A stretch of DNA of 64,000 nt from Candidatus Daviesbacteria bacterium. GTDB lineage: Bacteria > Patescibacteriota > Microgenomatia > Daviesbacterales > UBA10151. Below the pieces are notes generated by a model. That model worked only from the letters and a program-made list of their open reading frames with translations. It did not search any database and had not been told where the DNA came from. The stretch's first letter is position 1. Each line of letters opens with the position of its first letter. The stretch covers positions 3,657-67,656 of the forward strand of contig JAUSHL010000038.1 of the NCBI GenBank assembly GCA_030648645.1. Direction: 5' to 3'. This document shows, piece after piece, positions 511 to 60,476 of this stretch. The position numbers and the translations under genes were made by a program.

Positions 511-1262
511 ATTCTTCCCAAAATTTCATACCAATTAAAAATATTCAGGACGATTTAGTTTTTTTGAATGATGGTGCAGCTAGTATGGTAATTTCCACTT
601 CAGCTGTAAATTTTGGATTATTATTTGAAACTGAACAAATTTCTATTATTGAATCATTTGCCGGTTTTTTAAATTCTTTGTCTTTTCCAATTCAAATTGT
701 AATTTTATCTCATCGGTTAGATATCTCTTCATATTTAAAAACATTAGACAAAGCTCAAAGTTTACAAACTAACCCCAAGCTAAAAGAATTAACCGCCCAT
801 TATCATCAATTCATTGAAAGTATTATTAAAGAAAATGATGTTTTAGATAAAAAATTTTATGTTTGCCTCAATGTTGGATCTGCTGAACTGGGACTATTAT
901 CAAAAAGCATTGCTGATACCAGTAGAAAAGCTTTTACTCTACTATCCCCCAGAAGAGATCATATTATCCGTCAATTAGGACGAATGGGGCTCAAAGCCAG
1001 ACAACTAACCACTAAAGAGCTCATTAAGCTCTTTTATGTGGTTTACAACGACTTGGAAGATATCATAATCGAGGAACCTACCTCACCAAATCCAGGCGGG
1101 ACTGCAAAAATTCCTACTCCAACTATCCCAACTCCACCTCCGGTTTTACAACCTGCTGTTTTACCTGTTGTTCCACCTCCTCAATCCATACCTATATCCA
1201 CACCCCAACCAATTAGCAGATCTGCGCCTTTTATTGTGGAGGAGTTAAATGATGACAACTGA
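507..1262 (+). CDS. VirB4-N-terminal-domain-like protein (resembles the N-terminal region of Gram-positive TrsE/TcpF/PrgJ-type conjugation ATPases) with Pro-rich C-terminal tail
   Basis: Motif IKNIQDDLVFLNDGAASMVISTSAVNFGLL resembles start of VirB4/TrsE proteins; overlaps downstream ATPase gene by 14 nt; ends in PTPTIPTPPPVLQPAVLPVVPPP tail. Confidence 0.4.
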   Translation: MNSSQNFIPIKNIQDDLVFLNDGAASMVISTSAVNFGLLFETEQISIIESFAGFLNSLSFPIQIVILSHRLDISSYLKTLDKAQSLQTNPKLKELTAHYHQFIESIIKENDVLDKKFYVCLNVGSAELGLLSKSIADTSRKAFTLLSPRRDHIIRQLGRMGLKARQLTTKELIKLFYVVYNDLEDIIIEEPTSPNPGGTAKIPTPTIPTPPPVLQPAVLPVVPPPQSIPISTPQPISRSAPFIVEELNDDN

Positions 1263-2988
1263 CCCTAAAAAAAATACTGTTGATTTTTCTTTGGCCGATG
1301 CCATTGCTCCTTTGGAAATTGAGGTAGATTTCGCTCATTTAAGATTAAATCAAACACTATACCGTACTTTTTTTGTTTCAGGCTACCCACGATTCGTTGC
1401 CCCAAATTGGCTGGAACCTTTAATTTCTTTTGAACATTCTTTAAATGTTTCAATGTTTATTTACCCGACTAAATCAGCCGGAGTTTTAGGTGAGTTAAAG
1501 CGAAAAATTGCCGAGATGGAAGCCACTATTCAAACCGATTCCGATCGCGGCAGGGAAATAGATCCGGCAGTATTGGCTTCGTTAGAAGATGCACAAGAGT
1601 TACAGGCACAAATGGTCCGCGGTGCCGAAAGATTTTTTCAATTTAGTTTATATGTCACTGTACCTGCGCAGAATAAAGAAGAATTAAATAATATTTCTAA
1701 ACTCGTGGAATCAACTCTGGGAAGTATCTCTATTACCACTCATCCTGTGACCTTACAGATGACTGAAGGTTTTTCTTCAACTGTTCCTTTGGGTGAAAAT
1801 CCCTTGTATCTAACTCATAACATGGATACAACGTCCTTAGCCACAACATTTCCTTTTACAACCTCAGAACTTACTTCACCTGAAGGAGTGGTTTATGGAA
1901 TCAATGAACACAATGATTCTTTAATTATTTATGACCGGTTTGCCGGAGAAAACGCCAATTCAGTGATACTTGCTACCTCAGGATCCGGCAAATCCTATTT
2001 TATAAAATTGGAAGCTTTAAGGTCATTAATGCTGGGAACAGATGTTATTATCATTGATCCGGAAAAAGAATATGCTCATTTGGCAGAAGCGGTTGGTGGT
2101 GACTATATTAATTTTTCTACCTCCTCTCCTGTTAAAATTAATCCTTTTGATTTGCCTTCTCCAACAACAGAGTCACAAGGTGAAGATGAGTTGGGTAGAA
2201 AAATATTATCGTTGATGGGATTTTTAAAATTGGTTTTAGGTGATCTGAATGCTAATGAAACAGCAATGCTGGATAGGGCAATTAATACTACTTACAGATT
2301 AAAAGGAATTACCAAATCAGCAGATTATCAACAGGGTATGCAACTGCCTTTAATGGAGGATTTATATAAGGTACTAATTGGCATGGAAGATGCGATGTCC
2401 CAAAGTTTGGCCCTGCGACTCGAAAGATTTATCAAAGGATCACTGGCCGGTATTTTTTCTGCCCAGTCAAATGTGCAGATTAATAATCAACTCACAGTAT
2501 TTTCAGTCAGGGATTTACCGGAATCCTTAAGACCATTGGCAATGTATCTAATTTTGGATTATATCTGGACCAAAATCAGATTTGAACTTAAAAAAAGAAT
2601 ACTAATCGTTGATGAAGCTTGGTACATGATGAAATATCCTGATTCGGCAGCATTCTTAGTAGAACTTGTGAAAAGAGCCAGAAAATATTATTTGGGAGTA
2701 ACAACGATCTCACAGGATGTAGAAGATTTTTGGGGAGAAAATAAAGGTAAGGAAATAATTTCCAACTCTGCTATGCAGGTACTATTTAAACAAGCTCCGG
2801 TTTCGATTGAAAGAATTGGAGACACTTTTAATTTATCTCAAGGAGAAAGAAGGTTACTACTTTCAGCAGGAGTTGGAAGAGGGATTTTTTTTGCCGGTAA
2901 TGTTCATGTAGCAATGAGAGTAGTAGCCTCTGAGGAGGAACATAAATTAATTACCACTAAACCGGAAGAGATCATTAAAGCAACATGA
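1249..2988 (+). CDS. virB4: VirB4/TraC/TrsE-family type IV secretion (conjugal transfer) ATPase
   Basis: Walker A ATSGSGKSYF, Walker B ILIVDEAWYM, conserved N-region YRTFFVSGYPRFVAPNWLEPL typical of the VirB4 family; operon with neighbours. Confidence 0.75.
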   Translation: MMTTDPKKNTVDFSLADAIAPLEIEVDFAHLRLNQTLYRTFFVSGYPRFVAPNWLEPLISFEHSLNVSMFIYPTKSAGVLGELKRKIAEMEATIQTDSDRGREIDPAVLASLEDAQELQAQMVRGAERFFQFSLYVTVPAQNKEELNNISKLVESTLGSISITTHPVTLQMTEGFSSTVPLGENPLYLTHNMDTTSLATTFPFTTSELTSPEGVVYGINEHNDSLIIYDRFAGENANSVILATSGSGKSYFIKLEALRSLMLGTDVIIIDPEKEYAHLAEAVGGDYINFSTSSPVKINPFDLPSPTTESQGEDELGRKILSLMGFLKLVLGDLNANETAMLDRAINTTYRLKGITKSADYQQGMQLPLMEDLYKVLIGMEDAMSQSLALRLERFIKGSLAGIFSAQSNVQINNQLTVFSVRDLPESLRPLAMYLILDYIWTKIRFELKKRILIVDEAWYMMKYPDSAAFLVELVKRARKYYLGVTTISQDVEDFWGENKGKEIISNSAMQVLFKQAPVSIERIGDTFNLSQGERRLLLSAGVGRGIFFAGNVHVAMRVVASEEEHKLITTKPEEIIKAT

Positions 2989-4607
2989 ATGAACAAAATC
3001 AATTTTCTGCAAAATTATTACAAAACACTAAGGATTTAGTTTCCCTTTATAATACCGACAGTGAATTTAAGAAAGTCTTCAATAGGTTAGTGACTGTTCC
3101 TAAAGTAACATATAAAGGACAACTTCTGCGTACTTACGTTCACATAATTGCTGTCACTACTCCTAAATATTATCCGTTTGAAAGAAAGGTTGGTAATTCA
3201 CCGGAAAAATATGAGGAGCTATTCACTTCTTTTTATAAAGATCCACGGGGATATTCTGTGCTTGCAAAAAATTTAACAGATATTAAAAATGGAAAATATT
3301 CTTTACCTTTGACTCCTCAGGAACTAAAACTTCTGCAGGAATTAGATAAAATGCCGGATGATAATTCCAAATTATCTGCCGGTGATAAAAAGAAAAAGGA
3401 AGAAATTATTACCAAAATATCCGGAGGTTCCGGACATACTGATCAGAAAATCGCTGAAGAAAATAAAATTAAAGAAGACAAAGAAAAACAGGAACAAACA
3501 CAGACAGAGGAGCAAAAACCGGCAGAAAAAACCGAAGAAAAAGTAGTCGAAACACCGGTAATAATTGTTCCGGAAACCTCAGGCTTAAAAGATGTTAATG
3601 GTGAGCCTTTAAAGGTTTACAATCCTCAACCTATTTCCGCAATCACTCCTCCCATTATTATTCCTACTATCACTTCTATTCCGATGTCTGATTCTGCCCC
3701 ATCCGGCTCTTCTTCTGCCTCTGGGCCATCCTTTCATCTTCCTTCAGTCCGTCTTCCTTCAAGTGTTAAAGAGGGTTTAAAAAACAGTATGTCAAAAGCT
3801 AAAATATCTGCCGGTAATTTTTTAAAGAAAACTTTCCCAAAAGCTTCAAAGGGTATATTAAAAGGCTTAGGACTGGGAGCAAAAACAGCTGCCGGACTGG
3901 GAGCCAAAGCGGGATTGGCTGCCACCGGAGTTGGTGCACCTGTCGCTGCCGCTTTAATGGCACCAGATATTATTAAAGCCGGATTAAAAATTGCAAAATA
4001 TGTTGCCATTATTGTTGGAGCAATTATATTTTACTTTTTATTTAGTGATGTAAACCAAACAGGTTCACTATTTTCTCCCGGTACAATCACTGAATCAGCC
4101 GTTTTGCCACCGGAAGACACATATATCGCCTCCTGTCCTGCCTCAGGAAAAATAAGTTACCCTTCATATCGTGAAAATGGTCATTGCTCCGAAGGCTATG
4201 GTTTTGGTTGTCCTTGCACTCCGGTCGGACAGGGAAGACGGGCCAATGCCATCGATGTTTACACAAATAATCAAAGCATTATTCTGCCAAAAATCGATGA
4301 ACAAAATGTTCAATGGCAATTAATTGCCAAAAATTATCCGGTTAATAGTTCGGAAGGTGGGGGGTTTGGAGATACTTTTAAAGCATCCGTGGGAGGTGAT
4401 ACTTGGTTTTTAGATTTAATCCATCTTCAATCAATCAATCTTGAAACAAATATATTGTATCCATCCGGACAATCTATTGCCCAATCTGACGGACCAATTG
4501 TTCATATTAGTATTGGTAAAAATATTCAAGATCCGGTAGTTATTAGTCCCGGCAGTAGTTATGATTGTTCACCTAATTGGATTCCGGCTGATTTTATGTG
4601 TCAATAA
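2985..4607 (+). CDS. T4SS-operon membrane protein: K/E-rich N-domain, Pro/Ser-rich linker, single TM segment, Cys-rich C-terminal extracytoplasmic domain (possible hydrolase)
   Basis: ORF track; hydrophobic stretch ...AKYVAIIVGAIIFYFLF; C-terminal region with many Cys/His (GHCSEGYGFGCPCT...); 4-nt overlap with virB4 stop. Confidence 0.3.
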   Translation: MNEQNQFSAKLLQNTKDLVSLYNTDSEFKKVFNRLVTVPKVTYKGQLLRTYVHIIAVTTPKYYPFERKVGNSPEKYEELFTSFYKDPRGYSVLAKNLTDIKNGKYSLPLTPQELKLLQELDKMPDDNSKLSAGDKKKKEEIITKISGGSGHTDQKIAEENKIKEDKEKQEQTQTEEQKPAEKTEEKVVETPVIIVPETSGLKDVNGEPLKVYNPQPISAITPPIIIPTITSIPMSDSAPSGSSSASGPSFHLPSVRLPSSVKEGLKNSMSKAKISAGNFLKKTFPKASKGILKGLGLGAKTAAGLGAKAGLAATGVGAPVAAALMAPDIIKAGLKIAKYVAIIVGAIIFYFLFSDVNQTGSLFSPGTITESAVLPPEDTYIASCPASGKISYPSYRENGHCSEGYGFGCPCTPVGQGRRANAIDVYTNNQSIILPKIDEQNVQWQLIAKNYPVNSSEGGGFGDTFKASVGGDTWFLDLIHLQSINLETNILYPSGQSIAQSDGPIVHISIGKNIQDPVVISPGSSYDCSPNWIPADFMCQ

Positions 4608-7124: not shown

Positions 7125-7127
7125 TTA
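7071..7127. repeat. 7-nt tandem repeat (AAGAATG x3 then AAGAATT x4) abutting dnaA stop codon
   Basis: Directly visible: gaagaatgaagaatgaagaatgaagaattaagaattaagaattaagaatta. Confidence 0.9.
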
Positions 7128-8459
7128 ATCCAATAATTTTTGCTTTATCTCTCCAATAATTTTTTGAATTTCACTGTCTGTATTTAAAATTACCCCAATT
7201 TTTTCTACGCCGTGCATAATAGTTGTGTGATCTCTTCCTCCCAACATTTCACCGATCTTTTCATAAGGTAGTTTACAGTCTTGATATAAGATATACATAG
7301 CAATCTGACGGGATCTGACGAGATCTTTTTTACGGTTTGGTCCCACTAAATCTGCCATTTTAATATCAAAATATTGATTAATACCGGCTAAAACCTTTTT
7401 TTGATCAATTTTAAAGCCACTGGTTACACTTACTTTTCCCAACAGAAATCGGACATTTTCCTCATTAAATTCTTTCCCTGTGAGTTTTAAGGTTTGAATA
7501 ATCTGCATTAATTTACCTTCTAACTCACGCCCATTGGTAGAGATATTTTCAGCAATTAAAGTTAAACAATTTTCCGGAATATCATCCCCTTTTTCCTTAC
7601 ATTTAGCCTTTAAAATTGCGACCCTAGTATCAAAATCAGGAAGTTGAATATCAACCATCATTCCTCCCTGAAAACGGGAAGCCAAACGGGGTTCTAATTT
7701 CTGAATTTCATGAGGAGGACGGTCGGCTGTGACAATAATTTGGATATTTTTACCTTGTAGATCATTAAAAGTGTGAAAAAATTCTTCCTGTGTTGAATCA
7801 CGGCCGGATAAAAATTGGACATCATCAATTAGTAATAAATTACAGCTCCTATATTTAGTTCTAAATTGGGTCATACTTTTGGTCTGAATCCCCTGTACTA
7901 AATCATTGGTAAATTGCTCCAGTGGTGAGTAAATTATTTTTAAATTAGGATTTTTTTTAAGAAGAGCGTGTCCTACACCGACCATTAAATGAGTCTTTCC
8001 TACTCCGGTTCCGCCATATAAAAATAAAGGATTGTAAGAAAGTCCGGGATTGGCAATGACAGCTTGGGCTGCAGCATAGGCTAGATTGTTAGAAAGTCCA
8101 ACCACAAAATTCTCCAGAGAATATTTGGGATTTAAGTTGGTAATATTAGTTTTTGGGGTACTGGAAAATAAATTTAGTTCAAAATTATCATCTTCCGGAT
8201 TTTCTTCAGAGCGAGATTTAGTACTGCTCACTCTCAAATCAATTGGAATGGGCTTACCTAGGATCTGTTTTACAGCTTCTTCTAATACATCCTGATGTTT
8301 AGTATGGATTTCCTGCTTGATAAAATGAGTTGCTACAAAAATCACAAATTTTCCATCCACTTCCCCATCACAACTAGCCTTAGCAAACCACATTTTGTAA
8401 TTTATCGGAGAAACCTGATCTTTTATTATTTCCAGTACTTTATGCCATTCTTTATTCAT
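7125..8459 (-). CDS. dnaA: chromosomal replication initiator protein DnaA
   Basis: AAA+ Walker A GGTGVGKTHL, DnaA box-binding C-terminal domain; 444 aa; followed by dnaN. Confidence 0.95.
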   Translation of the reverse strand: MNKEWHKVLEIIKDQVSPINYKMWFAKASCDGEVDGKFVIFVATHFIKQEIHTKHQDVLEEAVKQILGKPIPIDLRVSSTKSRSEENPEDDNFELNLFSSTPKTNITNLNPKYSLENFVVGLSNNLAYAAAQAVIANPGLSYNPLFLYGGTGVGKTHLMVGVGHALLKKNPNLKIIYSPLEQFTNDLVQGIQTKSMTQFRTKYRSCNLLLIDDVQFLSGRDSTQEEFFHTFNDLQGKNIQIIVTADRPPHEIQKLEPRLASRFQGGMMVDIQLPDFDTRVAILKAKCKEKGDDIPENCLTLIAENISTNGRELEGKLMQIIQTLKLTGKEFNEENVRFLLGKVSVTSGFKIDQKKVLAGINQYFDIKMADLVGPNRKKDLVRSRQIAMYILYQDCKLPYEKIGEMLGGRDHTTIMHGVEKIGVILNTDSEIQKIIGEIKQKLLD

Positions 8460-8647
8460 ATGTTATATCCAAAATTCTTATTTTGGATTCAAGCCATTTA
8501 ATGAGAATTATGCATCCGAGTTAAATTGGCTTATCCACATCCCAGATTCTAGTGTATAAGTTATCCACATTGAAAGATGGAGGAAGTATAAATAACTAGA
8601 TCAATTTTTATATTTAAAGATAATAATTTTTGTGATACTGTAAATAT
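8460..8647. promoter_or_regulatory. dnaA upstream region with two perfect DnaA boxes; candidate oriC segment / dnaA autoregulation
   Basis: TTATCCACA at 8531-8539 and 8561-8569. Confidence 0.65.
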
Positions 8648-9298
8648 ATGACAAATAATGATTTAGTTTATGGATTTTTAGACGAGTCTCCTAATTTACA
8701 GGATAAATTTGCTTTCTTTTCAGTAGTTATTATATTAAGCACTAACCCAGATGAGAAAAGTTATAGATCAATTTTTAAAAAAACTCGCAAGAATGTTCTT
8801 AAAAAGAAACAGAAAGAAATCCCTGAATTAAAGTTTGCCAATTCTACTCCTCAAGTAAGAATTAAAATACTGAAGGCCATTGGTAAAAGATCTATTAAAA
8901 TATCTGCTTATATTTTGGATAAAGCAGGAAGACGTATACCAGATACGCCTGAAAATTATGGTATTGTGGCTGGTTTTGCGATTAGTGAGGTATTAAAGAA
9001 ATACCCTGTTATTGTTTTAACTTTTGATAAAAAATATACCAAAGTTAAAGATCAAGAAGAAGTGGAGAGAGTAACATTAAAAGTTGTAGCTAAAGTTTTA
9101 AAGAAAGGTGTATTACAGTTTAAGGAGCATGGTGATAGCAAAGCAAACAGTATACTTCAAATGGCAGATTTTGTAGCTGGGGCAGTAAGTTATAAATACA
9201 ATTTGAATGATAAGAGCTACTGGGAGTTGATAAAGGATTTAATTGAACAGGAAAATAAGGAATCATGGATAGATATTAAAGCAATTTATAAGCAATAA
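8648..9298 (+). CDS. DUF3800-like protein (accessory cassette gene)
   Basis: N-terminal VYGFLDESPN resembles the Y-x-DESG signature of DUF3800; bracketed by repeat modules. Confidence 0.3.
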   Translation: MTNNDLVYGFLDESPNLQDKFAFFSVVIILSTNPDEKSYRSIFKKTRKNVLKKKQKEIPELKFANSTPQVRIKILKAIGKRSIKISAYILDKAGRRIPDTPENYGIVAGFAISEVLKKYPVIVLTFDKKYTKVKDQEEVERVTLKVVAKVLKKGVLQFKEHGDSKANSILQMADFVAGAVSYKYNLNDKSYWELIKDLIEQENKESWIDIKAIYKQ

Positions 9299-9485
9299 AA
9301 AAGAATAGTCAATCCCTGGGCTCCGATTCTCACCGCCTTTTTCGAGGGTAAACCCCGATGGGTCTACTTTGCACGGAATAAGACCGCTATTGCTGGACTA
9401 GAGATCCCAGGACTTACTCGACTATTCTTGATTAAGATTGTACCAAATTTTCACCAATTTTTCAAGGCCCAGATTTTAAAATAAC

Positions 9486-9722
9486 TCAAGCAAAGGAAGG
9501 AAGTATAAGCTTATTTAGTTTCACTAAATATCTTGAACCCAAAATAAGTATTTTGGGTATAATCTAATTCAACTCAAGCTTGTAAAAATTCGTTGAATAT
9601 CTTGAATTCAAAATGAAGCATTTTGAATATAAACCAATTTAACTCGTCCACCAGTGGCGGACTCATTAAATAGTTTGAACCAAAAATTTGCAAATTTTTG
9701 GTATAAATAACTAGATCAATTT
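9486..9722. repeat. ~235-bp direct repeat copy 1 (three tandem -35/palindrome/-10-like modules plus a GC hairpin), left flank of the HEPN/MNT cassette
   Basis: Near-identical to 10586-10812; contains TTGAAC-ccaaaatNNNattttgg-gTATAAT style units. Confidence 0.85.
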
Positions 9723-9736
9723 TTGAGTTCTGGGAG

Positions 9737-10093
9737 TTATTGGATTTTATCTTTCACAAAGCTTGTAATTTCTTTAGCAAACTTATAAGCTTCTTCTGAT
9801 TTTTCCTTAGTAAAATGAATAAATTCTGAAAGATCTGGGTAGCGTGAAGGAATGTAATAGGTGTTAAGAGCAACACACTCGTTTCTTAAACTCTCAAAAG
9901 ACTGGTCACTTTTAATACATTCTTCAAGTAGTGCTCTTAAATCGTGAATTTTCTTGATGTCTTTTTCTTGACTAATCAAATAAGCTTTTAGAGCTTTTTC
10001 CACTGCTTGCTGGGATGTAAAACAAGCTCCATACCAAATTTTTCCTTCCAGACTATTTTTGTAACTATTCAGAGTTTCCCAGTAGACTGTCAT
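9737..10093 (-). CDS. HEPN domain protein (toxin component of HEPN/MNT pair)
   Basis: C-terminal YYIPSRYPD motif characteristic of HEPN proteins partnered with minimal nucleotidyltransferases; 118 aa. Confidence 0.6.
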   Translation of the reverse strand: MTVYWETLNSYKNSLEGKIWYGACFTSQQAVEKALKAYLISQEKDIKKIHDLRALLEECIKSDQSFESLRNECVALNTYYIPSRYPDLSEFIHFTKEKSEEAYKFAKEITSFVKDKIQ

Positions 10094-24604: not shown

Positions 24605-25978
24605 ATGTTGGAAACAGAACAGCTTGCCAAAGAGAATTTTGCCTCGGCTGTAGCTTTGGCAAAGACATTTGATTTTCGTTCGGATCAAATCCGGCTCAAT
24701 AGTCATATTGGAAAGTGTCTCGCAGGAGCAGGATTAGATTATTCTGCACAACTGCAATTTTTGAGTAAGATTCTACCCAGAGTAAAAGGTAAGAAGGAAG
24801 CAGAAGAAAGAAGATCCGCTCTATATGGAATGGCAGATATATATTTGGCCGGTAATGATCCGCAGTCAGCTTTTAAAATAATCTCCTTGGATAGAAATCG
24901 GCAGTCATTTTTGCGACCACATTTTGATCTAAAAATTGCCAGAGAGTTTGCCAAATTAGGGCAAGATCCAAGCAAAGCTTTAAAAAGAGTGTCATCTAAT
25001 ATCAGAAATGTAACAGGAGAGGATGGATTAAAGGATTTTATACAGGCTAATGATTATATTGGACTTGCCGAAACACAATATGATTTAGGTATTGATCATA
25101 AGCCTGCATTAACTAAAGCACATTCTCTATTTGAAAAATTAGGTTCAGAAAAATCAGTTGTCGAAGGTAAGTTAGCAAGGCTGTATGCTATATTCGGCGA
25201 TCCGGAGATGGTTTTGGATATAGTGGAGAAAATACAAGATCAAAATCCGGATCAAACCATTCATCGAAAAACAGAGGTTTTGCGGTCTGCATCCAGAGCA
25301 AGTTTGGCCAGAGGAGATGTTGATACCGCATTGGAAATTGCTGATGAGGAATCGGATTTGCTTATGGCTGAAATTGCTGCAGGTGGAGCAGTACAGGCAG
25401 TACAAAATAAAAATAGTGAATCAGCAGGTATTTTAATTGGAGTTGCAATGGATCATATAGATAGACCACAAGAGGAAGCATTGTCAGATTATGAGGAGGG
25501 GTGGCAGGCAGAAGTTTATTCTTTGATAGACCGAGCTAAGATTTTAACCGGAGTGAATCATGTTATGTATGGAGGAAGACCTTTTCTCCAGTCTTTAGAT
25601 ATTGCCTCTATTGTACGGGATGCACTATATCGTGCATCAACATATAATGAGATAGCCAAAAATCAGGCCTTAGTTGATATAGACGCAAAACCGGCTTGGA
25701 AATTAGCCCTTGAATCTGTTGCCAAAGAACTGAGACGTTCAGAAGGAAATAGTTGGACTGAGGGGGTGTGTTTACTCACCTTGGAAGATTTTACAAATGA
25801 TCAGGTTGAATGCGGTTACTATGATACAGCTTTGGATACAGTGGAGCAAATGATTAAAATTGATGAAATTACAAGCAAGAAGCTTACTAATAGATATTAT
25901 GAAGTATTTAAAACAGAGGTATTGGCAGATATTGGGTTAGCCCAGGTCAAAAAATCCCGCAAATTGGGGGCATCTTGA
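24605..25978 (+). CDS. alpha-helical repeat protein of unknown function (partner of Cas4-like nuclease)
   Basis: ORF track; predicted all-helical, locally higher GC than surroundings; stop 4 nt before next ATG. Confidence 0.3.
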   Translation: MLETEQLAKENFASAVALAKTFDFRSDQIRLNSHIGKCLAGAGLDYSAQLQFLSKILPRVKGKKEAEERRSALYGMADIYLAGNDPQSAFKIISLDRNRQSFLRPHFDLKIAREFAKLGQDPSKALKRVSSNIRNVTGEDGLKDFIQANDYIGLAETQYDLGIDHKPALTKAHSLFEKLGSEKSVVEGKLARLYAIFGDPEMVLDIVEKIQDQNPDQTIHRKTEVLRSASRASLARGDVDTALEIADEESDLLMAEIAAGGAVQAVQNKNSESAGILIGVAMDHIDRPQEEALSDYEEGWQAEVYSLIDRAKILTGVNHVMYGGRPFLQSLDIASIVRDALYRASTYNEIAKNQALVDIDAKPAWKLALESVAKELRRSEGNSWTEGVCLLTLEDFTNDQVECGYYDTALDTVEQMIKIDEITSKKLTNRYYEVFKTEVLADIGLAQVKKSRKLGAS

Positions 25979-25982
25979 ATAA

Positions 25983-26831
25983 ATGATTCAAAGGAAAAAG
26001 GCAGGTTTTGTTAAAAATGCCCTTTACTTATCTCACACCACTTTAAATGATTTTTTAAATTGCCCCCGTGCCTATTATTTAAAAAATATTTATCGTAATC
26101 CTGAGACCGGTTATAAATTACAAATTGCTTCCCCATATCTCAGCTTGGGTGCTACAGTGCATGATGCTATAAAATGGTTTTTGGAACAGGGATCAAAGTT
26201 GTTTTTCAATGATATTGAAGGGCAATACCGTAATCATTGGCAAAAATACCGTGGTAAAAAAGGTGGATTTAGTTCGGATGAGGAAGAAGCAATTTTTGGT
26301 AAGAGGGGATTGAAAATGCTTCAGAATTTTGTCGAAAATTCTTCTAAATTGGAAAAACTCCTACCACTTATAAATTTTCCTAAATATCCATTAACGGAAA
26401 ATATTATTTTGCACGGAAATATGGATTTTGTGGGGGAAAGAAAAGATGACAGTTTGCATGTTTTGGATTTTAAAACCGGCACCCGTGATGAAGACAGTCC
26501 AATTCAGCTTTATATTTATGCAATTTTGGCAGAAAATAATTATGAAAAGCCGGTTTCAAAGGCAAGTTTTTGGTATTTAGATCGGGATGAAAATCCCAAA
26601 GAAATAGTTATTGATTCTTTAGAACACACTATTGATTGGTTAAAAGAAAAGGGTTTACTCATGCAAAAAGCCATTGCCGAAAATAATTGGGTTTGTAAAA
26701 ATGGTCCCGCACCAGACGGTGCAGGATTGTGTAGAGATTGCAAGGAATATCAGGCAATAATTGATGGTAAAGGGGAATTTATGTTCTCAGATTATGCTTT
26801 TAAAAAGGATATATATTTTTTATCTCATTGA
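25983..26831 (+). CDS. PD-(D/E)xK nuclease of the Cas4/RecB family with four-Cys cluster
   Basis: N-terminal Cys (NCPRAYY), GNMDF, VLDFKTG (D-x-K), QLYIYA, C-terminal CKNGPAPDGAGLCRDC. Confidence 0.65.
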   Translation: MIQRKKAGFVKNALYLSHTTLNDFLNCPRAYYLKNIYRNPETGYKLQIASPYLSLGATVHDAIKWFLEQGSKLFFNDIEGQYRNHWQKYRGKKGGFSSDEEEAIFGKRGLKMLQNFVENSSKLEKLLPLINFPKYPLTENIILHGNMDFVGERKDDSLHVLDFKTGTRDEDSPIQLYIYAILAENNYEKPVSKASFWYLDRDENPKEIVIDSLEHTIDWLKEKGLLMQKAIAENNWVCKNGPAPDGAGLCRDCKEYQAIIDGKGEFMFSDYAFKKDIYFLSH

Positions 26832-55430: not shown

Positions 55431-55450
55431 GATTCGTCAGCTGACGAATC
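55431..55450 (+). terminator. perfect 10-bp inverted repeat hairpin after the HExxH gene
   Basis: gattcgtcag/ctgacgaatc; no clear T-run. Confidence 0.3.
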
Positions 55451-55508: not shown

Positions 55509-56720
55509 GTGTGTTTTAGTATACTCATACTCAACTTACACAAAAAAATAATCATGACCAATTCTAATAACAAAATGACTGTAACCTGTCCAAAATGCCA
55601 GCATAAATTTTCTGTTGATGAGGCACTGGTTCCGCAAATTGCCGAAGCCCGTTCTCAAATTGAAACAGAACTCCGCCAAAAAATGCTTGATTGGCAAAAA
55701 AATAAAGAAGAAATACTAAATAAGGATGTGGAAGAGAAATTAAAAGCACTAAAAAAAGAAAATGAAAAAAAGACAGAAGAACTTAAAAAAACCCGTGAGT
55801 TGGAACTGAAACTATTAAATGAGAAAAAAGCTTTTGAAGATGAAAAACAAACCTTTGAATTAAAAGTTCAACGGCAGATGAATGAAGAAAGAGAAAAAAT
55901 CCGGGAAAATGTCAGTAAAGTATTAATGGAAGAGCATCAACTTAAGGATGCTGAGAATTTGAAAAAAATTGCTGATATGTCCAAAATGATTGAGGAACTT
56001 AAATTAAAAGCCGGACAAGGTTCACAGCAATTACAGGGTGAAGTTTTGGAATTAGAACTGGAAGAATTACTTATTAAAACTTTTCCTTTGGATGAAATTT
56101 TACCGGTTGGTAAAGGGATTACCGGAGCGGATGTCGTACAAAAAGTTCGTGACACACAGGGTAAAGTGTGTGGGTCAATTATTTGGGAATCAAAAAGAAC
56201 TAAAAACTGGACAGAAGGATGGGTTATGAAATTAAAAGATGATTTGCGCGCGTCAAAAGGAAATGTGGCAGTACTGGTTACTTCAGTTTTACCACCGGAG
56301 ATTAATAAATTTGGTCCCCGCGATGGAATTTATGTGACTAATTTTGAAAGTTTCTTAAGTGTTGCCTCACTACTCCGGATTGCTTTAATTGAACAAAATA
56401 AAACAAAACTTTCTGTGGTGGGAAAAAATGAAAAAATGGATGCAATTTATAATTATTTATCAGGAAGTGAGTTCCGTCAAAGAGTGGAGGCAATCGTCGA
56501 AAGCTTTTCCGGAATGCAATCTGATTTGGAAAAAGAAAAAAGAATGTATACCCAAATTTGGGCAAAAAGAGAAAAACAAATTCAAAAAGTTTTGGATTCA
56601 ACCATTGGTATGCATGGAGATTTACAAGGATTAATGGGAGCATCTTTACCCCAACTACCAAGCTTAGATATTGAAATTGATGAAATTGAAATTATGATTG
56701 AAGAAAATTTAGAAAAATGA
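55509..56720 (+). CDS. DUF2130/RmuC-like protein: N-terminal C4 zinc ribbon, long coiled coil, conserved C-terminal domain (start may be the ATG at 55554)
   Basis: CPKCQHKF zinc ribbon; E/K-rich heptads; C-terminal GSIIWESKRTKNWTEGWVMKLKDD resembles DUF2130. Confidence 0.45.
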   Translation: MCFSILILNLHKKIIMTNSNNKMTVTCPKCQHKFSVDEALVPQIAEARSQIETELRQKMLDWQKNKEEILNKDVEEKLKALKKENEKKTEELKKTRELELKLLNEKKAFEDEKQTFELKVQRQMNEEREKIRENVSKVLMEEHQLKDAENLKKIADMSKMIEELKLKAGQGSQQLQGEVLELELEELLIKTFPLDEILPVGKGITGADVVQKVRDTQGKVCGSIIWESKRTKNWTEGWVMKLKDDLRASKGNVAVLVTSVLPPEINKFGPRDGIYVTNFESFLSVASLLRIALIEQNKTKLSVVGKNEKMDAIYNYLSGSEFRQRVEAIVESFSGMQSDLEKEKRMYTQIWAKREKQIQKVLDSTIGMHGDLQGLMGASLPQLPSLDIEIDEIEIMIEENLEK

Positions 56721-59700
56721 TTTCTAATACTTTTGATAAACTTTATAAACGATTAAATCCGGAACAAAAATTAGCTGTTGATGAGATAGAAGGACCAGTG
56801 ATGGTGATTGCCGGTCCGGGGACCGGAAAGACTCAAATTCTCACACTTCGGATTGCTAATATTTTAATTAAAACTCAAGTTAATCCGGAAAATATTCTGG
56901 CTCTAACTTTTACAGAATCTGCCAAATCAGAAATGAGGCAAAGATTAGTAGAAATTATTGGCACGCCGGCATACCGTGTACAAATTAATACTTTTCATGG
57001 TTTTTCCAATGAAGTTATAAAATCAAATCCAGAAAATTTTCCTCATTTAATTTCCTCAGAAAGTATTACTGAAGTTGAACAAATTGAAAGTTTGGAAAAA
57101 ATTATAACTAACACGGATTTGCAATTTTTAAAACCATTTGGTGATCCGCTGTATTATTTAAAACCCTCTTTATCGGAAATCAGTAATCTAAAAAAAGAGG
57201 GGATTGATTCAAATTTATTGGAGGAAGCAATAAAAAAATGGGAAGATGATTTTACTAAAATTGATGACTTATATCATGAAAAAGGAAAATACGCAGGAGA
57301 AATGAAAGGTAAATATCAAGACGAACTGAAAAGTATTAATAAGACAAAAGAACTGTTATTAATTTATAAAAAATATCAGGAATATTTATTAAAAGAAAGA
57401 AAATATGATTTTAATGACATGCTCTTGGAAGTAAAAAAAGCTTTGGAAAATGATAAAGGCTTATTACTTAGATTACAAGAAAAATATCAATACATTTTAA
57501 TTGATGAACATCAGGATACTAATGCAGTGCAAAATAAAATTGCTGAACTTTTAGGAAGTTTTTTCGAAGACAACCCAAATCTTTTTGTAGTGGGGGATGA
57601 AAAACAGGCAATTTTCCGTTTTCAAGGAGCCTCTCTGGAGAATTTTTTATATTTTCAAAAAAAATATCCAAAAGCTAAAATTATAAAACTTACAGAAAAT
57701 TACCGGTCGCATCAAAAAATCTTAGATGCTGTTGATAGTTTGATTTCTAATAATATTACCGCGAATTTATTATCTCCCAAGAAAATTATTTTGCATGCCC
57801 AATCAAAAAAAATATCTGAACCAATAAAACTGGCGGTGTTAAATAATTATTTTACTGAATATCAATTTATAGTTGATGATATTTCGAAAAAAATTAAACA
57901 AGGAATTCCACTGGAAGAAATTGCTATTATTGGCCGTAATAATAAAGATTTAAAAGTTGTTGCAGAATCCTTGGAAAGAAATGGTATTCCATATTCACTG
58001 CATAGTGATCAAAATATTTTTAATGATTTATATATGCAAAAATTGATCCTGATACTGGAAGCAGTAGGATCTGTGGGAAAGGACTTTGAACTATTAAAAG
58101 TCATGCATATTGATTTATTCAACATTGAGCCTTTGGACATTTATAAAATAATGGGGTATGCCCGCAAAAATAGAAGCTCCGTGTACGAGGTTTTGAGTAC
58201 TTTGAACAAAAGCTTAGCAAAAGAATTAAAACTTAAAAGTTTTGATTCATTAATTTCTTTTTATCAAAAATTAAATAATTGGCAAAAGACTGTACACAAC
58301 GAAAGTTTTGAAAAATTATTTATACAGGTTATAAACGAATCAGGATTTAAGGAAGCAATTTTAAAAAGTCCAAAAAGATTGGAACTTTTAGATAAATTGA
58401 TTACACTTTTTGAAGAAATTAAATCATTGGTTGAAAAAAATCCCAAATTCGGATTAAAGGATTTTTTAGATTATTTGCAGATGTGTCAAAAACATGAGTT
58501 ACCTTTAAAAAGTCATGTAATTTCGATTGATCAAAAAGCAGTAAAACTGATGACGGCACACCGTTCCAAAGGATTGGAATTTGATTATGTTTATATTGTT
58601 AATGCTTACGATGGACATTGGGGAAATGCTAAAAAAAGATCAGCTGGGCTTAAAATTCCTTGGGATATTTTAGGAATTACTTTAAATCTGGATACTGAAA
58701 ATGAAGATGAAAGAAGATTATTTTATGTAGCAATGACCCGCGCCCGCCAAGATATTATTATTACTTATTCAACACGCTGCCTTGAAGGAACAGAAAAAAT
58801 TCCATCACAATTTTTATCAGAAATTAATCCAAAATTAGTTGAAAAAATTGACACGGAGAAATTTGAAAAAGATTTTTTGCAGAAAAAAGAGGTAATTTTT
58901 GATGTAAGTACTGCGGTAAAAATTCCAGTGAAGAATGAATCTTCTCGAGGAGAAGCTTCTCCTAGAAAGGATCAACAATTTTTTAAAGAACTTTTTTTGC
59001 TTAGGGGATTATCAGCAACCGGACTTGATAATTATTTGAAATGTCCATGGCAATATTTTTACCGTAATTTATTGCAGTTTCCTGAAAGTAAAGAGAATTA
59101 TTTAATTTTTGGAACTGCAATCCACTTTGCTTTGGATTCTTTTATTTATCAAAGAAAAATAAAAAAATTAACTGGTAATTTTCTGGTAGAAAAATTTTCG
59201 GAAAGTTTAGATAATGAATTTCTTGTTGAACAAGACCGCAAAACACTTTTAGAAAAAGGTAAAAAAGCTCTACTTGGATACTTTGAAAATATTATTCCAA
59301 CTTGGGGGAAGGAAACCATGAGTGAGTTAAAAATATCTGGAGTAAAATTAACTGAAAATGTAACAATAACCGGAAGATTGGATATGATTGAAATAATTTC
59401 AGGAAACAGTGTTGCAGTACATGATTTTAAAACCGGAAAAATAAAATCCAGATCACAAATTGATGAGACAAATGAAAAAAGTGATTACCATTATTTGCGC
59501 CAGTTAACTTTTTATAAAATCTTATTAGATCGAAGTAAAAACGGATTAATGAAAATGACAGAAGGGGTAATAGATTTTATTGAACCAAATGAAAAAGGAA
59601 TATTTAAAAGTGAGAAATTTGAAGTGACAGAAATAATGGCAAAAGATTTGGAAAAAGAAATTATTAAAGTATCAAATGAGATTATAAATTTAGAATTTTG

Positions 59701-59767
59701 GGATAAAAGATGTGATGATCTAAAATGTGAATATTGTAAATTAAGAGATTTAACTATTTCAGAATAA
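56717..59767 (+). CDS. UvrD/PcrA-like superfamily-1 helicase fused to a C-terminal Cas4/AddB-like PD-(D/E)xK nuclease with Cys cluster
   Basis: Walker A AGPGTGKTQIL, DEHQDTN, VGDEKQAIFRFQGA, ENYRS; C-terminal CPWQYF...HDFKTGK...YLRQLTFY...CDDLKCEYCKL. Confidence 0.75.
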   Translation: MISNTFDKLYKRLNPEQKLAVDEIEGPVMVIAGPGTGKTQILTLRIANILIKTQVNPENILALTFTESAKSEMRQRLVEIIGTPAYRVQINTFHGFSNEVIKSNPENFPHLISSESITEVEQIESLEKIITNTDLQFLKPFGDPLYYLKPSLSEISNLKKEGIDSNLLEEAIKKWEDDFTKIDDLYHEKGKYAGEMKGKYQDELKSINKTKELLLIYKKYQEYLLKERKYDFNDMLLEVKKALENDKGLLLRLQEKYQYILIDEHQDTNAVQNKIAELLGSFFEDNPNLFVVGDEKQAIFRFQGASLENFLYFQKKYPKAKIIKLTENYRSHQKILDAVDSLISNNITANLLSPKKIILHAQSKKISEPIKLAVLNNYFTEYQFIVDDISKKIKQGIPLEEIAIIGRNNKDLKVVAESLERNGIPYSLHSDQNIFNDLYMQKLILILEAVGSVGKDFELLKVMHIDLFNIEPLDIYKIMGYARKNRSSVYEVLSTLNKSLAKELKLKSFDSLISFYQKLNNWQKTVHNESFEKLFIQVINESGFKEAILKSPKRLELLDKLITLFEEIKSLVEKNPKFGLKDFLDYLQMCQKHELPLKSHVISIDQKAVKLMTAHRSKGLEFDYVYIVNAYDGHWGNAKKRSAGLKIPWDILGITLNLDTENEDERRLFYVAMTRARQDIIITYSTRCLEGTEKIPSQFLSEINPKLVEKIDTEKFEKDFLQKKEVIFDVSTAVKIPVKNESSRGEASPRKDQQFFKELFLLRGLSATGLDNYLKCPWQYFYRNLLQFPESKENYLIFGTAIHFALDSFIYQRKIKKLTGNFLVEKFSESLDNEFLVEQDRKTLLEKGKKALLGYFENIIPTWGKETMSELKISGVKLTENVTITGRLDMIEIISGNSVAVHDFKTGKIKSRSQIDETNEKSDYHYLRQLTFYKILLDRSKNGLMKMTEGVIDFIEPNEKGIFKSEKFEVTEIMAKDLEKEIIKVSNEIINLEFWDKRCDDLKCEYCKLRDLTISE

Positions 59768-59799: not shown

Positions 59800-60366
59800 A
59801 TGAAACAATCAATGAAAGCTACACAGCAATTAAAAGACGAACATCAAGGTGTACTCATAGCTCTTTCCATATTGGAAAAAATTAACAAGAAACTTAAAAA
59901 GGGTGAAAATGTTGATTATAAACATCTTGAACAACTTTTAGAATTTATAAGGGTATTTGTCGATAAATGCCATCATGGTAAAGAAGAAGATTTACTTTTT
60001 CCGGCGATGGAAAAAGCTGGAATCCCAAATGAGGGCGGACCAATTGGGATGATGTTAGAAGAACATAATTTAGGAAGAAATTATGTCAAAAATTTTGCTC
60101 AAGCTATAGAAGATTTTAAAACAGGTGATCCAAAAGCTGCTAATAAAATTATCAAAAGTACTAGTAGTTATATCGCTCTATTGAAAGACCATATTGATAA
60201 AGAGGATAATATTTTATACATGATTGCCGATGCTCATCTTTCCCAAAAAACTCAAAAAGATTTATTAGAGAAATTTGAGATAGTTGAGAATGAAAAAGTT
60301 GGTAAAGGAAAACATGAAGAATTTCATAAAATGCTGGATAATTTACAAAAGATTTATCTGAGCTAA
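59800..60366 (+). CDS. hemerythrin-like (HHE cation-binding) domain protein
   Basis: H/E/D ligands in helical repeats: DEHQGV, CHHGKEEDLLFP, EEHNLG, HIDKED. Confidence 0.6.
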   Translation: MKQSMKATQQLKDEHQGVLIALSILEKINKKLKKGENVDYKHLEQLLEFIRVFVDKCHHGKEEDLLFPAMEKAGIPNEGGPIGMMLEEHNLGRNYVKNFAQAIEDFKTGDPKAANKIIKSTSSYIALLKDHIDKEDNILYMIADAHLSQKTQKDLLEKFEIVENEKVGKGKHEEFHKMLDNLQKIYLS

Positions 60367-60393: not shown

Positions 60394-60469
60394 CCTCGCA
60401 GCTTGCTGCGAGGATGAATGGTTCACAGAAGAACTTGCCCGAAGGGATACTCCGCAATTTATTGCGGAG
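60394..60469. terminator. two perfect palindromes between convergent genes (likely bidirectional terminators)
   Basis: cctcgcagc-tt-gctgcgagg (60394-60413) and ctccgcaat-tt-attgcggag (60450-60469). Confidence 0.4.
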
Positions 60470-60476
60470 TAGTTCA

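Follow-up and report, generated by a model that had tools for sequence, protein, structure and literature searches.

Two adjacent plus-strand genes lie at 55509-59767 of the stretch of DNA analysed here (64 kb in all, hereafter the window), which derives from the core chromosome of Candidatus Daviesbacteria, a lineage of the Microgenomates in the Candidate Phyla Radiation (CPR). The first encodes a protein of the DUF2130 family, and the second a 1016-aa protein in which a UvrD/PcrA-like helicase is fused to a Cas4-like nuclease (hereafter the helicase-nuclease). The explanation that we favour, and hold to be probable though well short of certain, is that these are two core enzymes of DNA repair and recombination, adjacent and co-transcribed in the Daviesbacteria lineage, and that they form neither an obligate two-component system nor a defence island. 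The housekeeping reading is supported by synteny and genomic context, a support that stops short of genome-wide proof. The genomes of CPR bacteria are very small, and little is understood of the DNA-repair equipment that they encode. If the helicase-nuclease is the main break-resection enzyme of CPR bacteria, it would rank as the simplest bacterial version of AddAB, AdnAB or RecBCD known, with one chain and one nuclease.

Besides the two genes, the window carries dnaA, LeuRS, TsaD, MetRS, TatD, GroEL and cell-envelope genes. For both proteins, exact matches occur on a 68-kb contig of a Candidatus Daviesbacteria metagenome-assembled genome (P0002 and P0121). The open reading frames (ORFs) 55509-56720 and 56717-59767 and their 4-nt overlap, described in an earlier note on this DNA, are present: at the junction, GAAAAATGATTTCT, the ATG of the helicase gene (56717-56719) overlaps the TGA of the DUF2130 gene (56718-56720) in the tetranucleotide ATGA at 56717-56720. 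The length of 403 aa given there for the upstream protein corresponds to an existing ORF from GTG 55509, but this start is probably too long, because homologues start a few residues ahead of a CPxC motif and public gene calls use ATG 55554 or 55575. The two genes are as follows.

55509-56720, plus strand: DUF2130 gene as the longest ORF, from the GTG start at 55509 (403 aa)

55554-56720, plus strand: DUF2130 gene according to public gene calls, with ATG 55554 giving 388 aa (P0001) and ATG 55575 giving 381 aa (P0002, NCBI)

56717-59767, plus strand: helicase-nuclease gene, 1016 aa, a 100% match to P0121, 'ATP-dependent DNA helicase [Candidatus Daviesbacteria bacterium]'

The helicase-nuclease consists of two domains.

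56753-58897, plus strand: SF1A UvrD/PcrA-type helicase core, aa 13-727, all motifs intact

58967-59755, plus strand: Cas4/AddB/AdnA-type PD-(D/E)xK nuclease domain, aa 751-1013, with a 1+3 Cys iron-sulphur (Fe-S) signature

The Pfam matches of this protein are UvrD-helicase (1.1e-63), UvrD_C (1.2e-38) and PDDEXK_1 (1.5e-20, aa 765-1011), together with a weak match to the Cas4 model TIGR00372 (4.4e-7). The earlier note had read the N-terminal part as a full superfamily 1 (SF1) UvrD/PcrA helicase, and this reading is borne out. The Q motif, Walker A, DExx and motifs III-VI of the SF1A UvrD/PcrA/Rep group are intact, and Q17, the Walker A sequence GPGTGKT, DEHQD, GDEKQAIFRFQGA, YRS, TAHRSKGLEF and VAMTRAR are invariant in 30 orthologues. 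The motor is nearest to PcrA both by sequence (4.4e-72 in a phmmer search of the PDB, where AdnB gives 5e-20, over the motor only) and by structure (3.7e-34 in Foldseek, which also returned UvrD and Rep). The full-length model, with a predicted local distance difference test (pLDDT) score of 81.9, aligns also with AddA (1.4e-30), AdnA (2.9e-26), AdnB, RecB and AddB. The protein missed the NCBIfam equivalog cut-offs of PcrA (342 vs 911 bits), UvrD (283 vs 1144) and Rep (269 vs 951), scored 164 bits with the AddA models (cut-offs 708-861), and reached 192 of the 696 bits demanded by RecB TIGR00609.

The C-terminal domain, by its residue signature, is a Fe-S nuclease of the RecB family and of Cas4/AddB/AdnA type, as had been proposed. 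The invariant residues comprise C776, H803, D889, D903-x-K905, Q929/Y933 and C999-x4-C1004-x2-C1007; the four cysteines form the 1+3 pattern known as the 'iron staple' signature of Cas4, AddB and AdnA (PMC12094033), and presumably bind the cluster. When the domain was compared by sequence with solved structures, AdnA was the only match (E = 0.93). The fusion is unbroken in all 80 metagenomic orthologue loci retrieved by a scan with a nuclease-domain profile, the nuclease domain is C-terminal in proteins of about 1000 aa in all 150 best representatives, and 303 clusters at E <= 1e-30 all show the same helicase plus nuclease architecture. Always fused, the enzyme is spread through related CPR metagenomes.

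The fusion itself has been described previously, and both of its parts are known families. UvrD-Cas4-like fusions were reported computationally in 2017 and make up the largest branch of pfam12705 (PMC5704561); the literature search on repair genes in CPR bacteria and Patescibacteria returned nothing useful beyond this work. The defining arrangement, a single polypeptide with a UvrD-like helicase followed by a pfam12705 nuclease, is found in the Daviesbacteria protein, which has the N-terminal UvrD-like SF1 helicase, the C-terminal pfam12705 nuclease and the Fe-S cysteines in common with the published set. The published fusions and the CPR protein alike often stand alone, and both are without biochemical characterisation. 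They differ in their surroundings: the published set is mostly found beside Type III restriction-modification (R-M) or Dcm/Vsr genes and was interpreted as ancillary to defence, whereas the CPR fusions have housekeeping neighbours and none of these partners in the flanks examined. The likeness is one of domain architecture.

The enzyme also resembles AddAB, AdnAB and RecB, since it combines a UvrD-like SF1A motor with a RecB-family nuclease and has the Fe-S '1+3 Cys' arrangement seen in AddB and AdnA. In contrast to AddAB and AdnAB, it is encoded by one gene, with no AddB- or AdnA-like partner in the window. It joins an active-looking motor, as in AddA and AdnB, to a Fe-S nuclease, as in AddB and AdnA, whereas AddAB and AdnAB keep the Fe-S nuclease on the subunit with the inactive motor. 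It can be assigned to none of the three systems: the AddA score is low and the 64-kb window has no AddB-like ORF; there is a single motor-nuclease gene where AdnAB would be sought, and its neighbours are DUF2130 and a hemerythrin gene; and with regard to RecBCD, the window has no second helicase-like ORF, nor did the window ORFs scanned yield a match to RecC or RecD. The best sequence and structure matches of the motor are PcrA, UvrD and Rep, with which it has all SF1A motifs in common, but those enzymes lack a nuclease domain.

AdnA, in AdnAB, and AddB, in AddAB, are the Fe-S nucleases that take up and cleave the displaced 5' strand; the motor subunit moves along the 3' strand (PMC8789073, PMC12094033). 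By analogy, the 1016-aa protein would be a single-chain motor-nuclease, with a UvrD/PcrA-like SF1A motor of presumed 3'->5' polarity and a Fe-S nuclease. Starting from a DNA end, the motor would track one strand, the 5' strand that is displaced would be threaded into the C-terminal nuclease and degraded, and the 3' tail would survive for RecA, making the protein a minimal end-resection enzyme.

The upstream protein can be assigned to DUF2130 (PF09903/COG4487), its hidden Markov model being matched far above the gathering score (1.5e-66, 224.7 bits vs a cut-off of 26.7) over aa 145-382 and profile positions 3-246 of 255; it also has the PD-(D/E)xK residues and a restriction-endonuclease-like fold. 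Residues are numbered here in the 388-aa form, and its parts, seen in an AlphaFold2 model (pLDDT 78.7), are as follows.

55587-55598, plus strand: CPKC knuckle with C12 and C15, a two-cysteine half-site, modelled as a small beta hairpin (residues 9-20)

55629-56018, plus strand: long helix or coiled-coil stalk, aa 26-155 (about 130 aa), modelled as one continuous helix

56022-56339, plus strand: PD-(D/E)xK nuclease core, aa 157-262, with catalytic E163/E166, D193 and E212-x-K214

56352-56645, plus strand: C-terminal helical bundle, aa 267-364, which includes a separate helix of about 60 aa (AlphaFold2) and the conserved W336, R339, E340 and K341

The nuclease core appears intact, with E163, D193, E212 and K214 invariant and the elements modelled in the order alpha-beta-beta-beta-alpha-beta of a restriction-endonuclease-like fold. 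The earlier note described this protein as a C4 zinc ribbon followed by some 200 aa of coiled coil, and neither description stands. C12 and C15 are the only invariant cysteines in 25 DUF2130 homologues, which conserve no second Cys or His pair that could complete a set of metal ligands, and the match to Zn_ribbon_4 (PF13717) falls short of the cut-off (23.1 vs 30.3 bits) and extends only over model positions 1-21 of 36, the first half. The CPxC knuckle may nevertheless bind a metal, and could conceivably bridge a dimer. The coiled coil is confined to the single helix 26-155, 63% of whose residues are E, K, R, Q or L and whose block-mean pLDDT is about 70-89 over most of its length, dropping at both ends; the other long helix is the separate one in the C-terminal bundle.

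A DUF2130/RmuC-like C-terminal domain had also been claimed, and here DUF2130 holds while the likeness to RmuC is limited to architecture and fold. RmuC (E. coli YigN) and ShdA, like DUF2130, carry a restriction-endonuclease-like PD-(D/E)xK domain after an N-terminal helical or coiled-coil region, but sequence homology is not detectable. No Pfam match of the DUF2130 protein to RmuC (PF02646) was obtained at E<=0.01, and hhalign against E. coli RmuC gave a probability of 0.1%, with a single sequence as template, which limits the sensitivity of that comparison. Homology to RmuC was therefore rejected at the sequence level. A search of a viral fold library with DUF2130 returned generic restriction-endonuclease-like matches only. 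The family is found across many bacterial phyla, with identities of 38-50% between phyla. DUF2130 would be an autonomous endonuclease built of a CPxC knuckle, a coiled-coil stalk of about 130 aa, an intact PD-(D/E)xK core and a C-terminal helical bundle. Since the gene is solitary in nearly all lineages, the protein most likely acts alone, probably as an oligomer on DNA structures of recombination and repair.

The closest relative, locus L204 (loci of other genomes are given as L and a number), weakly suggests a connection with the damage response, for a LexA gene (LexA_DNA_bind plus Peptidase_S24, 3214-3828) lies directly 3' of DUF2130 there. This gene is preceded by a TTGACA / ACTGAC-N6-GTCAGT / TATTAT arrangement, whose ACTGAC-N6-GTCAGT is plausible as an autoregulatory operator. 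The corresponding candidate operator CTGAC-N6-GTCAG has no match in the window. This LexA neighbour in one relative and the co-transcription in one lineage are modest leads towards a repair role of DUF2130.

The neighbourhood was compared from both sides. On the DUF2130 side, a scan with one genome per species gave 80 loci from very diverse phyla. The helicase-nuclease adjoins DUF2130 in three of them, all Daviesbacteria (L007-L009), and in one patescibacterial locus (L052) it is 5 kb away; it is near DUF2130 in none of the remaining 76 loci, which represent other phyla and other CPR lineages. These 76 loci include Saccharibacteria, Collier-, Roizman-, Levyi-, Morani-, Paceibacterota and Giovannonibacteria, and in 67 of them the flank on one or both sides reaches 3 kb or more. 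On the helicase side, the scan of metagenomes with the nuclease-domain profile gave 80 loci, 50 with enough upstream sequence. DUF2130 is present in five of these 50, adjacent in four and 4.3 kb off in one (L184), and four of the five rank among the ten best-scoring matches.

Within the lineage, the two genes belong to a conserved block that runs from a 590-aa membrane protein through TatD, MetRS, a small ORF, DUF2130, the helicase-nuclease, a methyltransferase and FemAB to a PcrA-like UvrD. The whole block is common to the window, L001-L005, L006/L087 and L088, while L123, L126, L184 and L052 have the MetRS-DUF2130-helicase section. The comparison of conservation and synteny with patchiness, proposed in the earlier note, thus favours the housekeeping alternative it had allowed for: the block consists of core genes and has been inherited vertically in Daviesbacteria and their close relatives. 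Elsewhere, the helicase-nuclease has BipA, PheRS alpha/beta, RNase J, YchF, peptidase M24 and glycosyltransferases as its neighbours.

The adjacency is inherited with the neighbourhood and is not strictly maintained, because other genes have repeatedly been inserted between the two. A 139-aa ORF stands between them in L088, LexA and a small ORF in L204, 5 kb in L052, 4.3 kb in L184 and about 7.8 kb (about 11 genes) in L006/L087. The coupled pair of the earlier note is therefore real as an adjacent arrangement with overlapping ends in the Daviesbacteria lineage, but it is limited to one lineage, interrupted by insertions, and unlinked in 76 of 76 DUF2130 loci and 45 of 50 helicase loci elsewhere. 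The search for a universal partner was also negative on both sides. All-versus-all clustering of the ORFs flanking DUF2130 in 80 loci produced lineage-level synteny only, and a family-level scan of 114 such ORFs found no family in more than nine of them. Clustering of the 80 metagenome loci of the helicase-nuclease produced no universal partner either, the largest clusters being BipA and peptidase M24.

Alternatively, the two proteins could form a functional pair specific to Daviesbacteria, a two-nuclease end-processing machine functionally analogous to AddAB/AdnAB, in which DUF2130 makes a second cut (of the 3' strand or endonucleolytic) or tethers DNA ends through its coiled coil and CPxC knuckle. 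The 4-nt ATGA overlap in the window speaks for this, as do the overlapping or near-abutting genes in L001, L004, L205, L008 and L126 and the adjacency kept down to 42% DUF2130 identity. Moreover, in L089 a stand-alone 276-aa PDDEXK_1 nuclease fills the same upstream slot, so that a second nuclease beside the helicase-nuclease recurs, and in a Planctomycete (L025, Phycisphaeraceae) a 627-aa ORF with a weak UvrD-like match (8053-9936) lies directly 5' of DUF2130. That ORF reaches 90 bits and 25% identity to helicase residues 26-425, with no match to the nuclease domain. Of the 76 loci outside the Daviesbacteria lineage, this would be the only one with a helicase adjacent to DUF2130. However, at least five related genomes carry one to about 11 inserted genes between the two, linkage is missing at the orthologous helicase loci and the DUF2130 loci counted above, and MetRS, TatD and FemAB are equally syntenic, so that general conservation of gene order explains the adjacency. 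We regard a functional pair as unlikely. Still more doubtful, with roughly a tenth of our belief, is a bolder form for Daviesbacteria: a physical two-nuclease end-processing complex of DUF2130 and the UvrD-Cas4-like enzyme, in which DUF2130 would dimerise by its coiled coil of about 130 aa and the CPxC half-sites would pair between protomers like the Rad50 zinc hook, tethering ends during resection. If true, it would give DUF2130 its first function and CPR bacteria a minimal resection machine.

The earlier note also proposed an anti-phage architecture. A role in defence against phages or plasmids, with the helicase-nuclease as effector beside a coiled-coil nuclease, would follow the logic of Gabija, Hachiman, Nhi and Shield. 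In PADLOC the 25 best matches of the helicase-nuclease are GajB or RT-helicase models only (best GajB 1.7e-88), and GajB, like the motor here, is a UvrD-like helicase. But this similarity is generic: the NCBIfam PcrA/UvrD models score higher (342 bits), GajB has no nuclease domain, and no GajA (OLD-type ATPase/TOPRIM) adjoins the CPR gene, whose context is not a defence island. Gabija is thus represented by GajB-model matches alone, the upstream protein having no match to GajA. Nhi joins a nuclease to an SF1B-type helicase, but no Nhi model occurs among those 25 matches, the motor here is of SF1A UvrD type, and the nuclease is C-terminal; Hachiman consists of HamA (DUF1837) and the SF2 helicase HamB, and DUF2130 has no match to HamA. 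RmuC-domain nucleases can serve as effectors, as in Shield, whose ShdA is membrane-anchored and restricted to Pseudomonas (PMC10270631). DUF2130, however, has no PADLOC match to ShdA and no RmuC homology, and its homologues start at the CPxC without a hydrophobic segment, as read from the sequence, so that the N-terminal membrane anchor of ShdA is lacking. The DUF2130 protein matched no PADLOC effector model, with only a weak coiled-coil match to LmuB (5.8e-4). PADLOC found no GajA, HamA or ShdA partner, and membership of a known defence system was rejected, the GajB matches being generic UvrD similarity and the LmuB match a coiled coil.

The surroundings point the same way. The neighbourhood is housekeeping and syntenic in relatives, and no R-M, toxin or integrase genes adjoin the two genes. 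Both families are nearly absent from collections of phages, viruses and plasmids. The nuclease domain had no matches in 50,697 phage records or in 2.9 M viral contigs and occurred on two of 72,556 plasmids. DUF2130 had no PHROG match and was found in seven Helicobacter heilmannii prophage predictions, 31 viral contigs and 46 plasmids. Both of the mobile-element copies examined adjoin ParA and lack the helicase: one (L090) is on Mesorhizobium pMLa, at 268052-269347, where DUF2130 also has relaxase, DUF736 and zincin-like (ArdC-type) genes in its vicinity, and the other (L091) is on an H. heilmannii prophage-like element, beside ParA. This suggests a separate subfamily of DUF2130 borne on plasmids or integrative and conjugative elements, without the N-terminal 90 or so residues of the match. 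A defence role is accordingly quite improbable in our judgement, despite the linkage of UvrD-Cas4-like fusions to Type III R-M and Dcm/Vsr in other phyla (PMC5704561) and the fact that some DUF2130 genes of other phyla stand beside OLD-family nucleases, Type I R-M or dGTPase, or on plasmids and prophage-like elements by ParA. A helicase-nuclease paired with a coiled-coil nuclease is insufficient evidence of immunity when synteny is vertical and the neighbours are housekeeping genes.

The remaining explanation is that the helicase-nuclease is an accessory of replication and repair, working on stalled forks, flaps or incoming transforming DNA, and that DUF2130 is functionally unrelated to it. 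The motor is indeed nearest to PcrA, UvrD and Rep, which are accessory replicative and repair helicases. Furthermore, a second UvrD/PcrA-like helicase without nuclease (618-650 aa where annotated) is encoded on the opposite strand, at a conserved position downstream of both genes (L001, 15128-end; L087, 12507-14363; L007 and L008, about 7-8 kb downstream), and two such paralogues are likely to be specialised. In the genome of the window, the position of this gene would lie just past the window end. The window also has a solo Cas4-like nuclease, described below. On the other hand, the combination of motor and RecB-family nuclease matches the resection enzymes AddA, AdnA/B and RecB along the full length, and AddB and AdnA use the same type of Fe-S nuclease on 5' strands at DNA ends. 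We think an accessory role improbable.

Several observations weigh against the view of two independent core repair enzymes. The stop/start overlap is found in three lineages (the window, L001 and L004), and the adjacency at 42% DUF2130 identity extends to L123, L126 and L127; both are compatible with some functional coupling. The literature yielded no functional study of DUF2130 or COG4487, nor biochemistry of either family. The link to LexA occurs in one contig only, with no LexA gene in the window or at the other loci. Outside the CPR, a few DUF2130 loci have defence-type neighbours, namely OLD/GajA-like proteins (3-4), Type I methyltransferases (2-3) and a dGTPase (1) among the 114 flanking ORFs, counts that may or may not exceed background. 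Finally, for the UvrD-Cas4-like fusions of other phyla, which lie beside Type III R-M or Dcm/Vsr, an ancillary role in defence was favoured (PMC5704561).

Regarding expression, the DUF2130 and helicase-nuclease genes are predicted to be co-transcribed in Daviesbacteria, which may reflect co-regulation of two repair functions. The relevant elements and the gene that follows are listed below.

55517-55529, plus strand: promoter-like element TAGTATACTCATA, containing TATACT, inside the GTG extension of the DUF2130 gene and conserved in relatives

59800-60366, plus strand: hemerythrin-HHE gene (Pfam Hemerythrin, 4.8e-21), starting 32 nt after the helicase-nuclease gene

60448-60471, plus strand: first plus-strand terminator-like hairpin 3' of both genes, a 10-bp stem and then a T-rich tail (consensus match only)

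The element TAGTATACTCATA is kept 5' of the DUF2130 gene in the window, in L204 (protein 82% identical) and in L205 (69%), and is a probable -10 region of a promoter serving both genes. No plus-strand terminator-like site follows the two genes upstream of 60448, hence none between the helicase-nuclease and hemerythrin genes, and the latter is possibly co-transcribed with the helicase-nuclease in the genome of the window only, outside the conserved unit. Some Fe-S repair factors are hemerythrin-like di-iron proteins. Hemerythrin was discarded as a conserved third gene, since none was found 3' of the helicase-nuclease gene in related genomes. A perfect 20-nt palindrome, GATTCGTCAGCTGACGAATC (55431-55450), lies between the genes for peptidase-MA and DUF2130 and is unique in the window (0 expected by chance). 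As the closest relative lacks it, we rejected the idea of a conserved operator or a LexA box; the palindrome may have been inserted recently or form the stem of a terminator.

Another gene of the window, at 25983-26831 on the plus strand, codes for a solo Cas4-like PDDEXK_1 nuclease of 282 aa (6e-18) and directly follows a 457-aa ORF (24605-25978) that has weak TPR matches only. The nuclease is 36-38% identical to solo nucleases located by the helicase-nuclease (L089) or near DUF2130 (Collierbacteria L057 and L063), and it could be a second nuclease of the pathway. Stand-alone PDDEXK_1 nucleases of 276-293 aa recur in L089 (5077-5907), L166 (2888-3724), L057 (7167-8045), L060 and L063. They lie directly 5' of the helicase-nuclease in L089, 1.5 kb 3' in L166 and 2 kb 5' of DUF2130 in Collierbacteria. 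Their recurrence agrees with reports that solo Cas4 is abundant in CPR genomes.

Two further features are found near the start of the window. At 1249-4607 (plus strand), a 579-aa TraG/VirB4-like P-loop ATPase is followed by a 540-aa ORF without a Pfam match, about 2.5 kb from dnaA (7125-8459, minus strand); this module may be related to type IV secretion or DNA uptake. A DUF3800-III RNA motif (Rfam, 52 bits vs a gathering score of 43.8) is located at 9302-9428 on the minus strand, directly after a 216-aa ORF at 8648-9298 on the plus strand.

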